Shown here: positions 12,001-21,000 of the stretch, one piece after another
How the letters are laid out: every line of letters starts with the position of its first letter
How positions within the stretch are numbered: position 1 is the first letter of the stretch
Origin: an uncultured delta proteobacterium
Lineage (GTDB): Bacteria; Desulfobacterota; WTBG01; CAIYCZ01
Reading direction: 5' to 3'
Assembly: GCA_963803975.1 (NCBI GenBank)
Contig: CAWDOY010000037.1
Span: 1-61,021 of the forward strand
DNA: 61,021 nucleotides
Made by a program: the position numbers

Positions 12001-15000
12001 GGTTATTGGCGCAGGAGAATGCTCGGCTGCAGGTTCAGCACATGCCTATGAAGTTGGCTCGTTGATCGCGCAGCATAAAGCTGTGCTCATTTGTGGCGGA
12101 CTGGGAGGTATCATGGAAAGTGCTGCCAGGGGTGCCAAGGATGCCGGAGGCCTGACCGTGGGAATTTTGCCTGGTTTTGAATCCGATGAAGCAAATCACT
12201 ATATTGATATACCGATAGTAACCGGTCTTAGCCATGCGCGCAACATTCTGGTCGTACGCTCCTCAACGGTTTTGATAGCTATTGAGGGAGGGTATGGAAC
12301 TCTTTCAGAGATAGCCATAGCACTGAAACTGGGGAAACCGGTGGTGGGACTTAACACCTGGAAGGTTGATCCCCGTGTCATCCAGGTAAAAACAGCCCGC
12401 GAAGCTGTTGAAAAGGCTCTATCACTCATTCAAAATAAAGTTTAATTGAACATGCAATTTGTTGTGCTACGGTTAAAACTTTCATTCATTATCCTTTTCC
12501 TTTTGAGCTTTCTGGCTTGTGTTTCCAGAGTCACTCCCCCTGCCCCTCTCCCGCCGCCTACGAATAAGTCTGAGGGACTTTACCATATCATTGGGAAAAA
12601 CGAGACCCTGTGGCGGATATGCAAAACCTATAAAGTAAGCATCCAGGAGGTAGCAGAGCTGAATAATATTAAAAATCCTGCCCGTGATAAAAGTCGGTGA
12701 TAAGATTTTTATTCCCGGAGCCAGGCAGCAGCTCACAGTAAAAGCATCACAGCAGGATGGTGAAGGAACAACTCCGGGGATTGTCATGAAAAAGGGGATT
12801 TTTATCTGGCCGGTGAAAGGGCCGGTTATTACTCAGTTCGGGATTGACAATGGATTTAAAAATGACGGGATTGATATTGCCGTCGCTCCCGGCACCTCAG
12901 TGGTGGCTGCTTATGACGGTCAGGTGGTTTTTTCTTCGGATCTCAAGGGCTATGGAAAGACTATAATCATTCAGCACCGGGATAAATACGCAACCGTGTA
13001 TGCCAACAATAAGACCAATCTGGCAAAAAAAGGTGCTGCGGTGAAGACGCGGCAGGTGATTGCAACTACGGGCGGCTCTGGGGAAGGCACCAGAGCACCG
13101 CATCTTCACTTCCAGATACGCGAGAAAAATCAGGCGCGAAATCCCCTGTTTTATCTGCCCTGATTTCCAGTGCAGCTCCCCGCCAAAGCGGAGCTTTCAC
13201 TGATTTTACTTTCAATATGTGGATACCTGCTCTTTTGACCCCGCTTATTCTGAAAGCGTTCAAGACGCGGCATGCGCCCGGTCAATCCTGCGGGTTACAT
13301 GTTTGCATTTTTTCTTTTTTTGCGGCCAGAAGCAGTTCCACATCCGCCGCTACAAACAACACCTCTCCCCCGATAGTATGCCGTAACCAGAGCGCCGTCG
13401 ATAAATGAATGCTGTCTGCACCGCGTAATGCATATTTTTCTATTATACCGTCTATCAATGCAATGATCTCTTTATGTATCTCAATAATGGTAAAGGATTG
13501 CCAAACTGCCTTGAATTGTCTTTTAATCCGTTCAAAATCAGTTATTTTAATATCTCCGGCCTTATGTCGGCGCAATGATAGAAATTGCCTGCGCCTGCGG
13601 CTTGCAATGACATGCTTACATAGCTTTCTGAAATCCTGATAATCAGCGCTCATCTGCGTCCTAACATATTATTCCGGTGTTGTTTTTACGTCTGATAAAA
13701 CTTTATCCCCCGGTGGATCACCTCTTTTATCCGCTGCTCCTTCAGGAGTATTTCTATATGTGTTGCAGCGACGGATTCATGTAACCCCAGGGATGAGCTG
13801 ATATCACTCATTGCACAGGGGCGCCGCTTGATGAGCTGTATAATTGCTCCCTTGATGTCATCTACGACAGCATTATGACGGTCGCTGCGAAATTCTTCGA
13901 TTATTTCCGCTTTTTCACCAAAAAGGACTTTTGCGAGTTCAAGTGTCTCCATGAGGGCCGGTTCTATGTTACGCTCTGCTGCGGGACGGAAAACAGAGTT
14001 TATCTGTATTTTATCCGGGCTGATGTCCTGGATGGCGGCAGCAATTTTTTTCAGTTCATCCATTGAATCATTTATTCCTTTTACAATCATCACTTCAAGC
14101 CAGAGCTGCCCGCGAAATTCCTTCCTCAATAATTTCAAGCCTTCTACCATCTGCTCTACCGTCAAATCCGGGTGAGGACGGTTAAGCCGGGCAAACACGT
14201 CAGGGCTTACCGCGTCAAGGGAAGGCACAATGACGTTGGCCTCAATGACATCGCGCCGTACTTCGGGCAGATGGAACAGCGTACCGTTGGTTAATACTGC
14301 CACCGGAGTTGACGTCATGTCTTTGATGCGGCCTATCATCTCTCCCAGCGCAGAATTGAGCGTTGGCTCGCCGGAACCGGAAAAAGTTATAAAATCAATC
14401 TTTTCCTCCTTAGCAAGGATACTTCTCAAATCATCAAGAATTGCCTGAGGCGCGATCCATTGCTTGCGCTCCAGGGTTTTCACGGAGGTCCTGCCAACCT
14501 GGCAATAGACACAGTTGAGCGTGCACACTTTAAAAGGTACCGCATCAATACCGAGCGAATAGCCAAGTCTGCGGGATGGCACCGGGCCGAAAATATGACT
14601 CATGGGTAGCCTCCTGTGCAAGAAAGATGTCAGAAGACAGAATACAGAGGGCAGACAGCGGATGATGAGATTACCTGCTTGTTTCATCTTTTCTATTTTC
14701 TGTCTCTGTTGTCTGTTTTTTCTCTTCTTGCTTCTGCGTTTTACTTCTCTCATAAATCTCTCTTTTATGTCAACTGGTGTATGTGGAATAATAGGGACCT
14801 CTTCAGTTTTAGTATCTGTTTCCGCTATGACGATCAAGCTCTGTTTTAGAAAATAATTGCATTGTCCTGCGCAATGCAGCAATGGTTTTAACTCTCCTGA
14901 CTGTCAGATTACCAGCACCTTGCGCAATTTTCATTAAATCTGTCTTACCGGCAGTAGCAGGTGGGCTGGTTGCCGGTACTGCCGTACACTTTATTATCCG

Positions 15001-18000: not shown

Positions 18001-21000
18001 AGCGCACAATTAACCGCACCGCGGTTTTTCACGTAGCAGCCCGTATTGATTTGTCCATCAGGCTCAACGTTCGCAATCATCCAGTCCTCACATCGCCAGC
18101 TGTTATTCCGCAACGCCTCAAGACATGTCCCTGAATTTAAAATAGGATACCCTTGCCGTTTCAGCTGCAGCAACTGGGATAATACGTTATTTTTCTGCTC
18201 CGATGAAAGGCACAGGGCTGTGTCGCCATCATACGGATAATGGAACTGTATGGTAAAGCCCTTTACCCTGGAGGAGAAATATTTTACCAGGTCGCAATAT
18301 TCTGATGATTGATGGTGTTAATGGTTATATTTGCCAGCACGTTCGGATGCGGAGACTGTTCTATATGCTGCACAATACGTTCGAATGCTGCGACCCCGTA
18401 TCTGCGCATGAGCATCCTTGAGGCCATCAATACTTACCCAGAGGACATCGGTTGGGATGTCAAGAGGGAATGTCCCATTGGTGACCAGGCCGACACTGAA
18501 AAAATATTTTTTTGCCTCCCTCACCACATCGTAGATGGTTTGGCATGATCTTTCCAGAGAAATGGTTCGCCACCCTCAAGAATAAGAATGCGCACGCCCT
18601 TATCCTGCAGGGTTTTAAAAATAGGTGACGATTGTTTCAAAGGGTAATCGGCGTGGGTTCTGGCTTTCGACCAGAATGGGCAGTGCCGGCAGCGGAAATT
18701 GCACTCGTGGGTAATTTTAAAACCTGCGAGAATTGGCCTCCGCCTGCCAAAAACCCTGCACTGAACATAGTAATCAAAAAAATATGCAGGCCAGAAATTT
18801 TTTAAAATCACCTATAAGACCTATCTCCGCTTACCCCTGCCTATTCTTTTAACCTTCTTCTTTCGTTTTTTTCTTCTGCTTGACTGCTGTCTGCTGATCT
18901 TTCCCATGCTTCCTCCTGTAATTGTTTAACCGCAGAGAACCCGGCGAACTTATCTGCTTTCAAGGAGACGTTGCATCTGCTGTTTATTAAGTGTAGTAAC
19001 GTATCGCATTTTCTGATTGTTTTCAACTTTTTTCTTCTGCACTGTTTTCTTCGCAATCTGTTTTCATAGTCAGCATTAATCTCAGGTGTGTTATATAATG
19101 ATAAATCTATGTTTATGTACATAATCTGTTAAAGAGACCGCCATGAACGCACGATTTCTCGAAATTGAGATAACCGGAAACTGCCTGTATCAATGCAGAC
19201 ACTGCTATGGTGATTTCCCCGTAGAAGGGCGAACTCTCTCTGGCAGACGGTCCGGAACGTCATTGAAGAGGCCAAAGCGGCTGTTTGACTGCCTGATATT
19301 TTCTGGCGGCGAACCGTTTCTTCATCCCGACCTCCCTGCTATGGTTCAGGAAGCTGCAAAAGATTTTCTGGTCTTTATCACAACATCCGGTTATCCGGTC
19401 TCTGATGAAGCACTGCAGGCGATTAAGCACAAATCAATTCTGGTATTTGGCCTTGATGGCATTGGCGAAACCCACGACAGCTACCGCGGTTATCCGGGAG
19501 CCTATAAGAATCTTCTGCAGACGCTGGATAGAACGCGCGACATGCCAAAAGAAATAATTGTTACCTTGTGGAAGGGAGTGCTGCCGCAGATTGATGCAAT
19601 TATAGAATTGAGTGCCCGCTATAATGCCATCGTGCACTTCAACGGGTTGATTCCTGTTGGCAGGGCGAAGCAATCTCCTGATATCCTGCCTGATGTGCAT
19701 GAACTGCGAGAAGGTGCAAAGAAAGCTGCATCAGCTCAAAATGCGGGAGGGTTCAATCGTTACTGATTTGCATGAGGTGACTGAAAAAGATAAACAGGAG
19801 GGAATTGATCTTTTCTGTCGCGGCAGGTTTAACATCACCCCGCGGGGAGATGTGCGACCCTGTGAATTTCATACTGCGGTGCTGGGTAATATTTATACAT
19901 GAGTCTTTAAAAGATATAATTCTTCGTTCCCAGCAGTGTTTTTTAATGCGACAGAGAGAACAGGGATTCAAGGACCATATACCGGCTCGACTTTAGCAAA
20001 TCCCTTTGATTATCATACATCCATCTGCCATACGGCTTCCGCTGCGGCCAGTGAGGGCGCATCCCTCGTTCTGAAAATCGCTGTGCCTCTATCTGCCATC
20101 ATGTATTTGAAGCTTGCAGCCGGCCCTGCAGCACCCAGTTTCCCAGCGATGCAATCTGTTCATTTAACGCCCGAATGCGTCCGCCCATGATACGCAGCAG
20201 CCGGTTATTCATCTTTAGTGCAATCTTCGGATTTTCTTCAAGTAATGCGTCATACTCTTCCTCGCCGATTTCTAATACCTTTGGATGACTCTATGCTGAT
20301 GACCGAAGCGCACGGCGGGAGGTTATCAAAAAAGGACATCTCACCATAGGCTTCGCCGTCGCTCATCGTGGTAATAATTTTATTCTCTATGCCAGAGATT
20401 GCTTTTACAATTTTGAATTGACCTGAATATATTATACTCAGAGTTCTTTTGTCCAGGCTCCCCTCCGCCAGGACAGTTTCCCCTTCCGCGTATTCTTTCA
20501 AGTGACATTGGGACAGATATTTTCTCTATTTCCTCATCGCTGAATTCACTGAAAAATTCCAGCCCCTTCACATCGCCGACGCGCACCGTATGATTTGCCG
20601 CTGTTTTTTTTCTCTGCACTTCCTTTTCCCTGACAATCCCGTTAATCAGGGGGCAGAAATTAAACACACCGGTTATAAATGCATAGAGTCCGACAATAAT
20701 GGCGACCACCCTGCTGAGAGTTTCAAGATTCCCTATCGTAGTTCCGAGAACAATCAGCACAAATCCCCCCATAATACGCATGCCTCTGTCCATTGAATAT
20801 CTGCCCTGCATAGGAAAGCCCCCGTTGATAAATAGCAGCAAACGTAACCCGGTAAAAAAAGGGTGGGCTCTGCGGAGCCCACCCTTTTAGCCGGCTGTTG
20901 TTTATTTCATCTTAATCGTAATCTCGCTGCTCTTTGCTCCCTTGGCAATGTGGGAGGTATACGTTGCCGTTGCAATCTTTTCCGCTTTTGCTGCTTTCAT

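Follow-up and report, generated by a model that had tools for sequence, protein, structure and literature searches.

We think it likely that the genes comA, comB, comD and comE of an uncultured sediment bacterium of the Desulfobacterota form an archaeal-type, phosphoenolpyruvate (PEP)-dependent "type 1" sulfonate cassette, which became established immediately downstream of the one queH gene of the lineage and has since been passed on together with it, in the company of an ordinary QueH and of lineage-specific radical SAM proteins. Judged by sequence, ComA and ComD are members of their families, ComB and ComE are homologous to theirs, and the genes are tightly coupled. The presence of the first genes of the archaeal coenzyme M pathway in this bacterium and its relatives is worth testing; the neighbouring iron-sulfur genes look like ordinary passengers.

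The com run and its gene calls

The window, i.e., the whole stretch of DNA analysed (61,021 nucleotides of contig CAWDOY010000037.1), carries on its minus strand the order radical SAM-queH-comA-comB-comD-comE-radical SAM (Table 1). The survey's finding of an archaeal-type comA-comB-comD-comE run, led by queH and flanked by radical SAM genes, is borne out in this genome; the end given there, 18409, falls inside the upstream PTO1314-like radical SAM gene (18811-17880). One-base indels break queH, comB, comE and the upstream radical SAM gene. Since the frames of these genes are open in a genome of the same genus, and the listed break points of comB, comE and the upstream radical SAM gene show single-base differences in contigs from other sequencing runs (the queH break is absent from the rows shown in that comparison), the breaks are probably assembly errors.

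The intact same-genus copy of comB stays under the cut-offs of the equivalog models (97 bits on NF002057, cut-off 235), and the position of the gene matches that in archaeal operons. For comE, the intact same-genus copy reaches 213 bits (cut-off 221.5), and this is its best family by far. ComD exceeds the TIGR03845 cut-off in 27 of the 42 genomes of the class. A promoter and terminator scan was uninformative (11 and 6 sites versus 7.9 and 6.2 expected). Contigs from RNA runs cover 24 and 26 of 30 bins, but as contigs alone they cannot show transcription or a single transcript.

Table 1. Features of the com locus in the window, and the HdrE/HdrD-like operon elsewhere in the same genome (contig C1)
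Feature	Position	Strand	Remarks
Radical SAM protein, PTO1314/DUF3463-like	17880..18811	-	Several one-base breaks; neighbour of the com run in two families only
queH, epoxyqueuosine reductase	17278..17830	-	One-base break near 17410; PF02677 164 + 63 bits (two pieces), cut-off 23.5
comA, phosphosulfolactate synthase	16401..17174	-	Intact, 257 aa; TIGR03849 312 bits, cut-off 280; E 2e-65 to PDB 1qwg
comB, phosphosulfolactate phosphatase family	~15751..16414	-	Overlaps comA stop; one-base break near 16244; both pieces over PF04029 cut-off
comD, sulfopyruvate decarboxylase alpha subunit	15267..15797	-	Intact; TIGR03845 176, cut-off 148
comE, sulfopyruvate decarboxylase beta subunit	~14700..15280	-	One-base breaks near 14959 and 14842; 3' end approximate; TIGR03846 161 bits (first piece)
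Radical SAM protein with C-terminal helix-turn-helix	13686..14603	-	305 aa; PF04055; adjoins comE in two families only
NarI/HdrE-like membrane subunit, HdrD-like CCG protein and SsuA-family ABC transporter	C1, about 142100-147000		

The queH-comA junction in the class

A recount confirmed that comA is present in 28 of the 42 genomes of this Desulfobacterota class. In 27 of these 28, queH precedes the comA match by 22-363 bases, as the survey had claimed from a smaller sample, and the contig of the 28th stops just upstream of comA. The genes around the junction vary while the junction itself persists, i.e., it is tightly conserved. Two radical SAM genes flank the cassette in this genome, but neither is linked to it throughout the class: the downstream gene adjoins the com run in 16 and the upstream gene in 11 of the 28 comA genomes, and both do so in only three genomes, all of the bacterium's own family.

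The com-linked QueH proteins and those of comA-less families fall into different clades (approximately 40% identity, with a long separating branch). Together with the persistence of the junction among changing neighbours, this counts against the favoured account and makes it possible that the com-linked queH and the com cassette arrived jointly. The survey's own reservation that the linkage might be ancestral synteny largely proves apt.

The missing steps and the end product

In the pathway that we propose, ComA would add sulfite to PEP and ComB would remove the phosphate; a housekeeping NAD malate dehydrogenase, or another 2-hydroxyacid dehydrogenase, would oxidise sulfolactate in place of ComC, and ComDE would then give sulfoacetaldehyde. 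QueH would perform its usual reduction of epoxyqueuosine in tRNA. The last step is the least certain and may either yield coenzyme M, with L-ASST (a COG1900 enzyme) or free sulfide effecting a reductive thiolation, or turn sulfoacetaldehyde into another C2 sulfonate by oxidation, reduction or transamination. Coenzyme M as end product has slightly less than an even chance, and we agree with the survey that the product may be coenzyme M or another sulfonate.

The two gaps reported in the survey are real. No gene of the ComC family (Ldh_2) was found in the bacterium's own genome, and the five of 42 class genomes with a protein over the cut-off have it unlinked to the com run. An archaeal MMP16 query returned nothing from the own genome and, from the class, only 30-35% identical matches of the COG1900/L-ASST type plus ferredoxin stretches. 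A COG1900 gene occurs in 36 of 42 class genomes, and one such class protein scores 122 on TIGR03287 (cut-off 364); the own genome (98% complete) has no match to L-ASST. The survey had conceded that malate dehydrogenase could replace ComC, and this largely holds, with a protein over the TIGR01763 cut-off in the own genome and in all five others tested. Known proteins could fill both gaps: malate dehydrogenase that of ComC, and L-ASST or free sulfide that of MMP16, for which L-ASST or uncatalysed sulfide are described as back-ups (PMC12068725).

The ComC gap is shared with some archaea. Five ANME-1-like genomes with the closest comA, chosen for comB-comDE loci without comC, have neither Ldh_2 nor QueH. 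This shared gap makes an alternative sulfolactate dehydrogenase a testable question. Since four ANME-1-like genomes also have no Ldh_1/malate dehydrogenase over the cut-off, a ComC substitute of an unrecognised kind may exist. We rejected a detour through cysteate synthase, which was found in 0 of 5 com genomes and had no match in the own genome. McrA (PF02249) was found in none of five genomes, so that no classic use for coenzyme M is evident. A motif search of the own genome, a weak method, found sat but not aprA or dsrAB and does not fix the source of sulfite.

It is distinctly possible, if less probable than thiolation, that sulfoacetaldehyde instead ends up as sulfoacetate, isethionate or taurine, destined for a surface polymer, a lipid or a small solute. 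The absence of MMP16 from the class and of an L-ASST match from the own genome fits such an outcome, as does an own-genome aldehyde dehydrogenase that is 46% identical to one encoded after comE in an archaeal comABC-DE locus; the piece scores only 378 on SafD, however (cut-off 700). The comA-less genome G028 has cysteate synthase-comD-comE among glycan-type genes, suggesting that bacterial comDE can serve other products. On the other hand, the cassette has no conserved glycan, lipid, transaminase or dehydrogenase gene as a neighbour across the 28 loci of the class, and the nearest ComA relatives outside the class sit behind MMP16.

An HdrE/HdrD-like operon with a sulfonate-type transporter

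A separate, conserved operon on contig C1 combines a NarI/HdrE-like membrane subunit, an HdrD-like protein and an SsuA-family ABC transporter. We regard it as rather unlikely, though worth pursuing, that the cassette makes coenzyme M and that this operon serves as a reductase of the coenzyme M disulfide, as an electron source for the last step or as an importer of coenzyme M. HdrD-like orthologues (56-96% identity) occur in 26 of the 28 comA genomes, and none above approximately 40% occurs in family f3; a NarI-like neighbour is present at 26 and an SsuA neighbour at 24 of the 28 loci. Ten Nitrospirota contigs link an HdrE/HdrD-like pair with cysteate synthase and comDE; five such genomes have no COG1900 gene, and one has an ABC transporter in the same run that is 49-61% identical to that on C1. 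The class NarI-like protein also matches the gene before a Methanosarcinales HdrD-like gene (4 loci, 26-32%).

Several observations weigh against this link. The co-occurrence with com genes follows family lines, and the operon also carries genes that belong to another system (MSMEG_0568-like radical SAM, GNAT and AIR-synthase-like). The expectation that outside genomes with the C1-type HdrD-like gene would carry com genes failed: five have no ComD over E 1e-12, and three of these, as well as class members G029 and G031, have no ComA. The class HdrD-like protein joins a Methanosarcinales and Nitrospirota clade weakly in a quick mixture tree (SH-aLRT 84) and not at all in another. Corrinoid methyltransferase blocks of the own genome, considered as a counterpart of the Nitrospirota block, proved generic (approximately 30-40% match, with one short stretch at 44%).

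A fuller version, to which we give a little less credence still, is that a whole lineage of non-methanogenic Desulfobacterota, lacking ComC and MMP16, uses the archaeal PEP route to produce true coenzyme M, which would act as a carrier of methyl groups or of thiol redox equivalents and be cycled through a conserved HdrE/HdrD-like reductase in the membrane. An enzyme other than MMP16 would then complete the pathway: L-ASST, the HdrD-like complex or, with the lowest likelihood, the linked QueH in a secondary role. A role for the C1 operon extends the favoured account of a cassette behind queH and does not replace it. As a lead, the operon is better than the QueH and radical SAM neighbours, though it is also found without com genes.

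QueH and the radical SAM neighbours

The survey had proposed the QueH-like and radical SAM proteins as candidates for the missing enzymes. That the missing oxidation of sulfolactate or insertion of sulfur is the work of the QueH-like Fe-S protein, of the radical SAM proteins or of both, for QueH perhaps alongside its normal duty, now appears highly improbable, despite the near-constant junction, the separate clade of com-linked QueHs and the two enzymes not found. The archaea with the same ComC gap manage without QueH, and these genomes have no credible epoxyqueuosine reductase other than the com-linked protein. QueH occurs in 37 of 42 class genomes, as a single copy except in G029, including all 10 genomes of three comA-less families, where it stands in unrelated contexts. 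queA is over the cut-off in 38 of 42 class genomes, and the own genome also has tgt over the cut-off and a queC fragment. With at most 38 candidates scored per genome, none of the 42 has QueG over the cut-off; in two com genomes that are 97-100% complete, no QueG-like match came up at all. The own genome does have, as reported, three QueG-like genes elsewhere, all under the TIGR00276 cut-off (158, 150 and 67 bits; cut-off 200). We rejected these paralogues as the real queuosine enzymes: besides their scores and the lack of a match in the two near-complete genomes, the readable copy, on contig C13, is without the DYH and VDTG residues of PDB 5d08, which we take to be the catalytic His/Asp motifs of QueG (the alignment of the C3 copy does not reach those residues).

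The protein itself shows no divergent motif. It aligns over its full length with PDB 7lc5 (E 9e-38), and an intact relative scores 222 bits on PF02677 (cut-off 23.5). As the survey had cautioned, the normal Cys motifs are kept: all 19 aligned QueHs share HxCC, RCxxC and YRQxYCGC without variation, and across the class the first two are found in 34 of 34 rows and the third in 33 of 34. The motifs shared with Thermotoga maritima QueH (HxCC, RCxxC and YxQxxCGC) are presumably metal ligands. The com-linked QueH has Cys at the position of T. maritima Asp13, and so do nine of nine com-free class QueHs read. Among the 80 nearest metagenome queH loci, three have com genes and four lie behind tgt (three of those as queA-tgt-queH); among 80 comE loci, queH is near only in three, which show the arrangement of the class, whereas none of the 76 loci from other lineages has it nearby. 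The com-linked queH is thus most likely a housekeeping queuosine enzyme, which these genomes appear to need for queuosine, and this part of the finding is ordinary.

The case for the radical SAM proteins fares no better, since neither gene is linked in all families. The downstream gene is present in 38 of 42 class genomes, whether or not they carry com genes, and in 8 of 10 genomes of comA-less families; it adjoins the com run in none of the eight comA genomes of family f6. The upstream PTO1314-like gene is unlinked in all 11 loci read from f2, the largest family. A copy of it, linked or not, occurs in 27 of 28 comA genomes versus 2 of 14 without comA, which speaks for a role, but this pattern follows family lines. 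Its intact same-genus copy scores 146.5 on TIGR03961, below the cut-off of 306. The downstream protein, labelled MJ1312-like in the survey, has no solved relative and no NCBIfam model near the cut-off, and for the flanking proteins the ESM Atlas and PDB offered no more than generic radical SAM labels, if anything. Most likely, the two genes are lineage-specific neighbours.

Least probable of all is a catabolic or sulfite-cycle use, in which sulfolactate or sulfopyruvate would be degraded via sulfoacetaldehyde, yielding acetyl phosphate and sulfite. In bacteria, comDE is commonly found without comA, e.g., in Alphaproteobacteria, where it has a catabolic role, but the biosynthetic ComA and ComB always lead the cassette here, and we rejected Xsc-dependent sulfonate catabolism with sulfoacetaldehyde acetyltransferase over the cut-off in 0 of 5 genomes (best 347, cut-off 676).

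Comparison with known systems

A literature search found no published description of this cluster. Coenzyme M is described as arising by three routes, of which two are archaeal and one is bacterial, and as linked to the metabolism of alkanes and alkenes (PMC12068725, PMC9457059). If a lineage of bacteria keeps the archaeal type 1 genes but no Mcr, this would point to another use of coenzyme M or to another product of the route.

The type 1 pathway of methanogens comprises ComA, ComB, ComC, ComDE and MMP16/ComF (PMC12068725, PMC5695019). The class resembles it in having comA, comB, comD and comE in one run and differs in that most genomes are without a ComC family gene, MMP16 is not found and the five genomes tested have no McrA. 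Class ComA is 58-61% identical to ComA of the MMP16-comA-comB-(comC)-comDE-SsuA ABC operons of ANME-1-like archaea, and the two are neighbours in a weakly rooted ComA tree that does not show the donor. Unlike in those archaea, where they are fused, comD and comE are separate here, and the host is a bacterium.

The bacterial XcbA-E route of Xanthobacter autotrophicus likewise starts with a ComA homologue that adds sulfite to PEP; it then runs through sulfoacrylate with XcbC/D/E and is reported to have no other homologue of the archaeal genes (PMC9457059). In the class cassette, ComB and ComDE follow ComA, and none of XcbC, XcbD and XcbE is among the conserved neighbours of the com loci. QueH is like that of T. 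maritima (PF02677, PDB 7lc5) in its full-length match, its Cys motifs and its occurrence in genomes with queA and without QueG over the cut-off; unlike it, it has Cys for Asp13, as in com-free class QueHs, and its gene stands before comA rather than in a queuosine operon. The Nitrospirota HdrE/HdrD-like-cysteate synthase-comDE operon differs in using the phosphoserine route, in being one operon and in having no queH, and the kinship of the two HdrD-like groups is weakly resolved. Like the class cassette, however, it offers a bacterial path to sulfoacetaldehyde without MMP16, and the class has a related HdrD-like protein and ABC transporter.

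Genes and features of the com locus and related loci
Feature	Location	Strand
PTO1314-like radical SAM, queH, comA, comB, comD, comE, second radical SAM, in that order	window 18811-13686	-
Third, divergently oriented radical SAM/SPASM gene	window 19143-about 20030	+
406-aa ORF	window 20902-22122	-
NarI/HdrE-like, HdrD-like, SsuA-family ABC, ferredoxin-dependent bilin-reductase-like, MSMEG_0568-like radical SAM, GNAT, AIR-synthase-like, one run	own genome, G000:C1 about 142100-150600 (L140:10117-18561)	
Second SsuA-like binding protein	own genome, L272:9485-10459 (G000:C42)	
Two corrinoid methyltransferase blocks (corrinoid protein, URO-D/MtaA-like, MtgA/MtrH-like, activator)	own genome, L141:15276-19666, L466:5519-10835	
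HdrE/HdrD-like, cysteate synthase, fused comDE	Nitrospirota, L218, L221, L224, L229, L230, L237, L238, L336, L340, L357	
MSMEG_0568-like radical SAM inside ABC genes behind com operon	archaeal, L043:6537-7724	

A conserved com cassette behind queH

In the cassette, ComA (312 bits against a cut-off of 280) and ComD (176 against 148) score above their curated models, ComB passes with Pfam only, and ComE reaches 213 against a cut-off of 221.5 in the intact same-genus copy. One-base breaks interrupt four genes of the run. Because the broken genes have open reading frames in the same-genus locus, and single-base differences appear in comB, comE and the upstream radical SAM gene where contigs of other runs cover these positions, we read the breaks as assembly errors. 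One-base frameshifts recur in many genes of the window and genome, typical of an error-prone assembly; any gene called here as a fusion or a pseudogene needs checking against relatives. Conservation of the third radical SAM/SPASM gene and of the 406-aa ORF is limited to three genomes of the organism's own family; the same-genus copy of the ORF matches no Pfam family. Close relatives with named records carry the label Thermodesulfobacteriota or delta proteobacterium, and the DNA is matched mostly in sediment and freshwater metagenomes.

Our comA count, 28 of the 42 class genomes, is that of the survey; all 28 belong to families f1, f2 and f6. In f2 and f6, comA is absent from four genomes, all 59-83% complete; queH is lacking there too, and these assemblies have therefore probably missed the locus. 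The survey's gene run with queH before comA was confirmed: in 27 of the 28 genomes 22-363 bases separate the end of queH from the comA match downstream, and the remaining contig stops just upstream of comA. The queH-com linkage is real, not chance, and is a single inherited arrangement rather than many independent cases. ComD exceeds its cut-off in 14 genomes of a 401-genome sample of the phylum, every one of this class.

Gaps at ComC and MMP16

The reported absence of ComC (sulfolactate dehydrogenase, Ldh_2 family) and of MMP16, the archaeal coenzyme M (CoM) synthase, held up. Five of the 42 class genomes, the own genome not among them, carry Ldh_2/ComC above the cut-off. As a query, a genuine MMP16 taken from an ANME-1-like locus (520 bits against a cut-off of 364) retrieved from the class only L-ASST-type matches at 30-35% and ferredoxin stretches. 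Judging by these searches, both gaps are real.

Outside the class, the nearest ComA sequences (58-61%) occur in 11 archaeal loci, mostly ANME-1-like, with MMP16 upstream in 7, comC between comB and comDE in 2, and comB and comDE without intervening comC in 5. Five ANME-1-like genomes chosen for comC-less loci (1.1-2.3 Mb, completeness not given; operons L043, L045, L046, L047 and L048) contain neither Ldh_2 nor QueH, which argues that the ComC gap is independent of QueH. With four of the five also lacking Ldh_1 over the cut-off, the sulfolactate dehydrogenase of these archaea is either unaccounted for or absent from the assembled sequence. Among 80 comE loci (flanks of at most 7 kb and frequently less), queH lies near comE in 3, all with the class arrangement; one further class-like locus is truncated, and the other 76 have no queH in such flanks. 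A distant relative (27%) of the L043 radical SAM protein follows ABC genes on the own-genome contig C1.

QueH and the flanking radical SAM proteins

QueH is present in 37/42 class genomes, in one copy each save G029, and in all 10 genomes of the comA-less families, where its neighbours are unrelated. Since queA exceeds its cut-off in 38/42, cells of the class would make epoxyqueuosine and so need a reductase. The alternative reductase, QueG, is over the cut-off in 0/42 (up to 38 candidates per genome scored), and with the same sampling G001 (100% complete) and G017 (97%), which carry com genes and queA, have no QueG-like match. The three QueG-like genes of the own genome score 158, 150 and 67 against 200, and the copy whose alignment spans the relevant stretch is without the catalytic His and Asp motifs present in PDB 5d08. 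QueH matches T. maritima QueH over the full length. The survey had noted that QueH keeps its normal cysteine motifs and may just make queuosine; the motifs are indeed invariant in com-linked and com-free copies alike, and QueH is most simply a queuosine enzyme, with a second job possible. Against the plain queuosine reading, com-linked QueH shares only approximately 40% identity with that of comA-less families and occupies a separate part of the tree; it could have come in together with the cassette or have been fixed by it. Among the best 80 metagenome queH loci (64 with at least 600 bases downstream), com genes occur in 3, and queH lies behind tgt in 4.

The downstream radical SAM gene occurs in 38/42 class genomes, including 8/10 of the comA-less families, and adjoins the cassette in 16/28 comA genomes, none in f6. 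The upstream one, under the cut-off on the PTO1314 model, adjoins in 11/28, and in f2 its relatives (38-43%) have varied surroundings in each of the 11 loci fetched, out of 16. Some copy is found in 27/28 comA genomes versus 2/14 without comA, a distribution that favours the survey's proposal but follows family lines. That QueH and the radical SAM proteins are the enzymes of the missing steps is nevertheless highly improbable: QueH is the sole over-cut-off reductase, the archaeal gap exists without QueH, and the radical SAM genes are not linked throughout.

Proposed pathway and end product

By analogy with the route in PMC5695019, PEP and sulfite would probably give sulfoacetaldehyde via phosphosulfolactate, sulfolactate and sulfopyruvate. 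In that paper the kinetics decided for MJ1425 and against MJ0490, the other malate dehydrogenase; we infer that a malate dehydrogenase can perform the sulfolactate step, more slowly. The suggested replacement of ComC by malate dehydrogenase has a candidate, over the TIGR01763 cut-off in the own genome and 5/5 others. For the last step to CoM, L-ASST (the COG1900 enzyme) or uncatalysed sulfide could stand in for MMP16, both being named as back-ups after MMP16 loss in PMC12068725; a COG1900 gene is present in 36/42 class genomes and was not found in the own genome.

CoM is a tentative end product, at somewhat under an even chance, and another C2 sulfonate is somewhat less likely. Neither McrA nor Xsc was found in 5 genomes. 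An antioxidant thiol, a role supported for CoM in Methanosarcina in PMC12713407, is one possible use here. A comA-less class member (L271, G028:C262) carries ATP-grasp, cysteate synthase, comD, comE, acetyltransferase and LPG-synthase-like membrane genes, possibly for sulfonate modification of a surface polymer.

HdrE/HdrD-like operons outside the window

Orthologues of the C1 HdrD-like protein (56-96%) occur in 26/28 comA genomes and none in f3, with neighbours unchanged in most loci. The protein is strongly conserved in f1, f2, f4, f6 and in a few deltaproteobacteria from outside the class that have no com genes. Outside genomes with the C1-type gene lack ComD (0/5) and ComA (0/3); they could be importers, although the operon may equally have no connection with the cassette. 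A related HdrE/HdrD-like pair is joined to cysteate synthase and comDE on 10 Nitrospirota contigs, preceded by corrinoid methyltransferase genes in those loci that were read, with the C1-type ABC transporter forming part of the run in one genome, and no COG1900 gene in five genomes with the operon. The Nitrospirota HdrD-like proteins group with those of Methanosarcinales (SH-aLRT 98-99); those of the class join this clade weakly in one tree and not at all in another. The C42 SsuA-like protein is 43-44% identical to ones that several other bacteria (L191, L214) encode next to comDE but on the other strand, to which SsuA-like proteins of L336, L340 and L357 are related.

Comparison with known pathways

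The survey states that comABDE itself has been published. No description of a bacterial comABDE cluster was found in open-licence papers and preprints, supplements excluded (tables and subscription journals would escape). PMC4045070 and PMC6286981 serve as background only. The cassette represents a known pathway in an unexpected host, as a variant whose end product we leave open; the known bacterial CoM route is described as distinct in PMC9457059.
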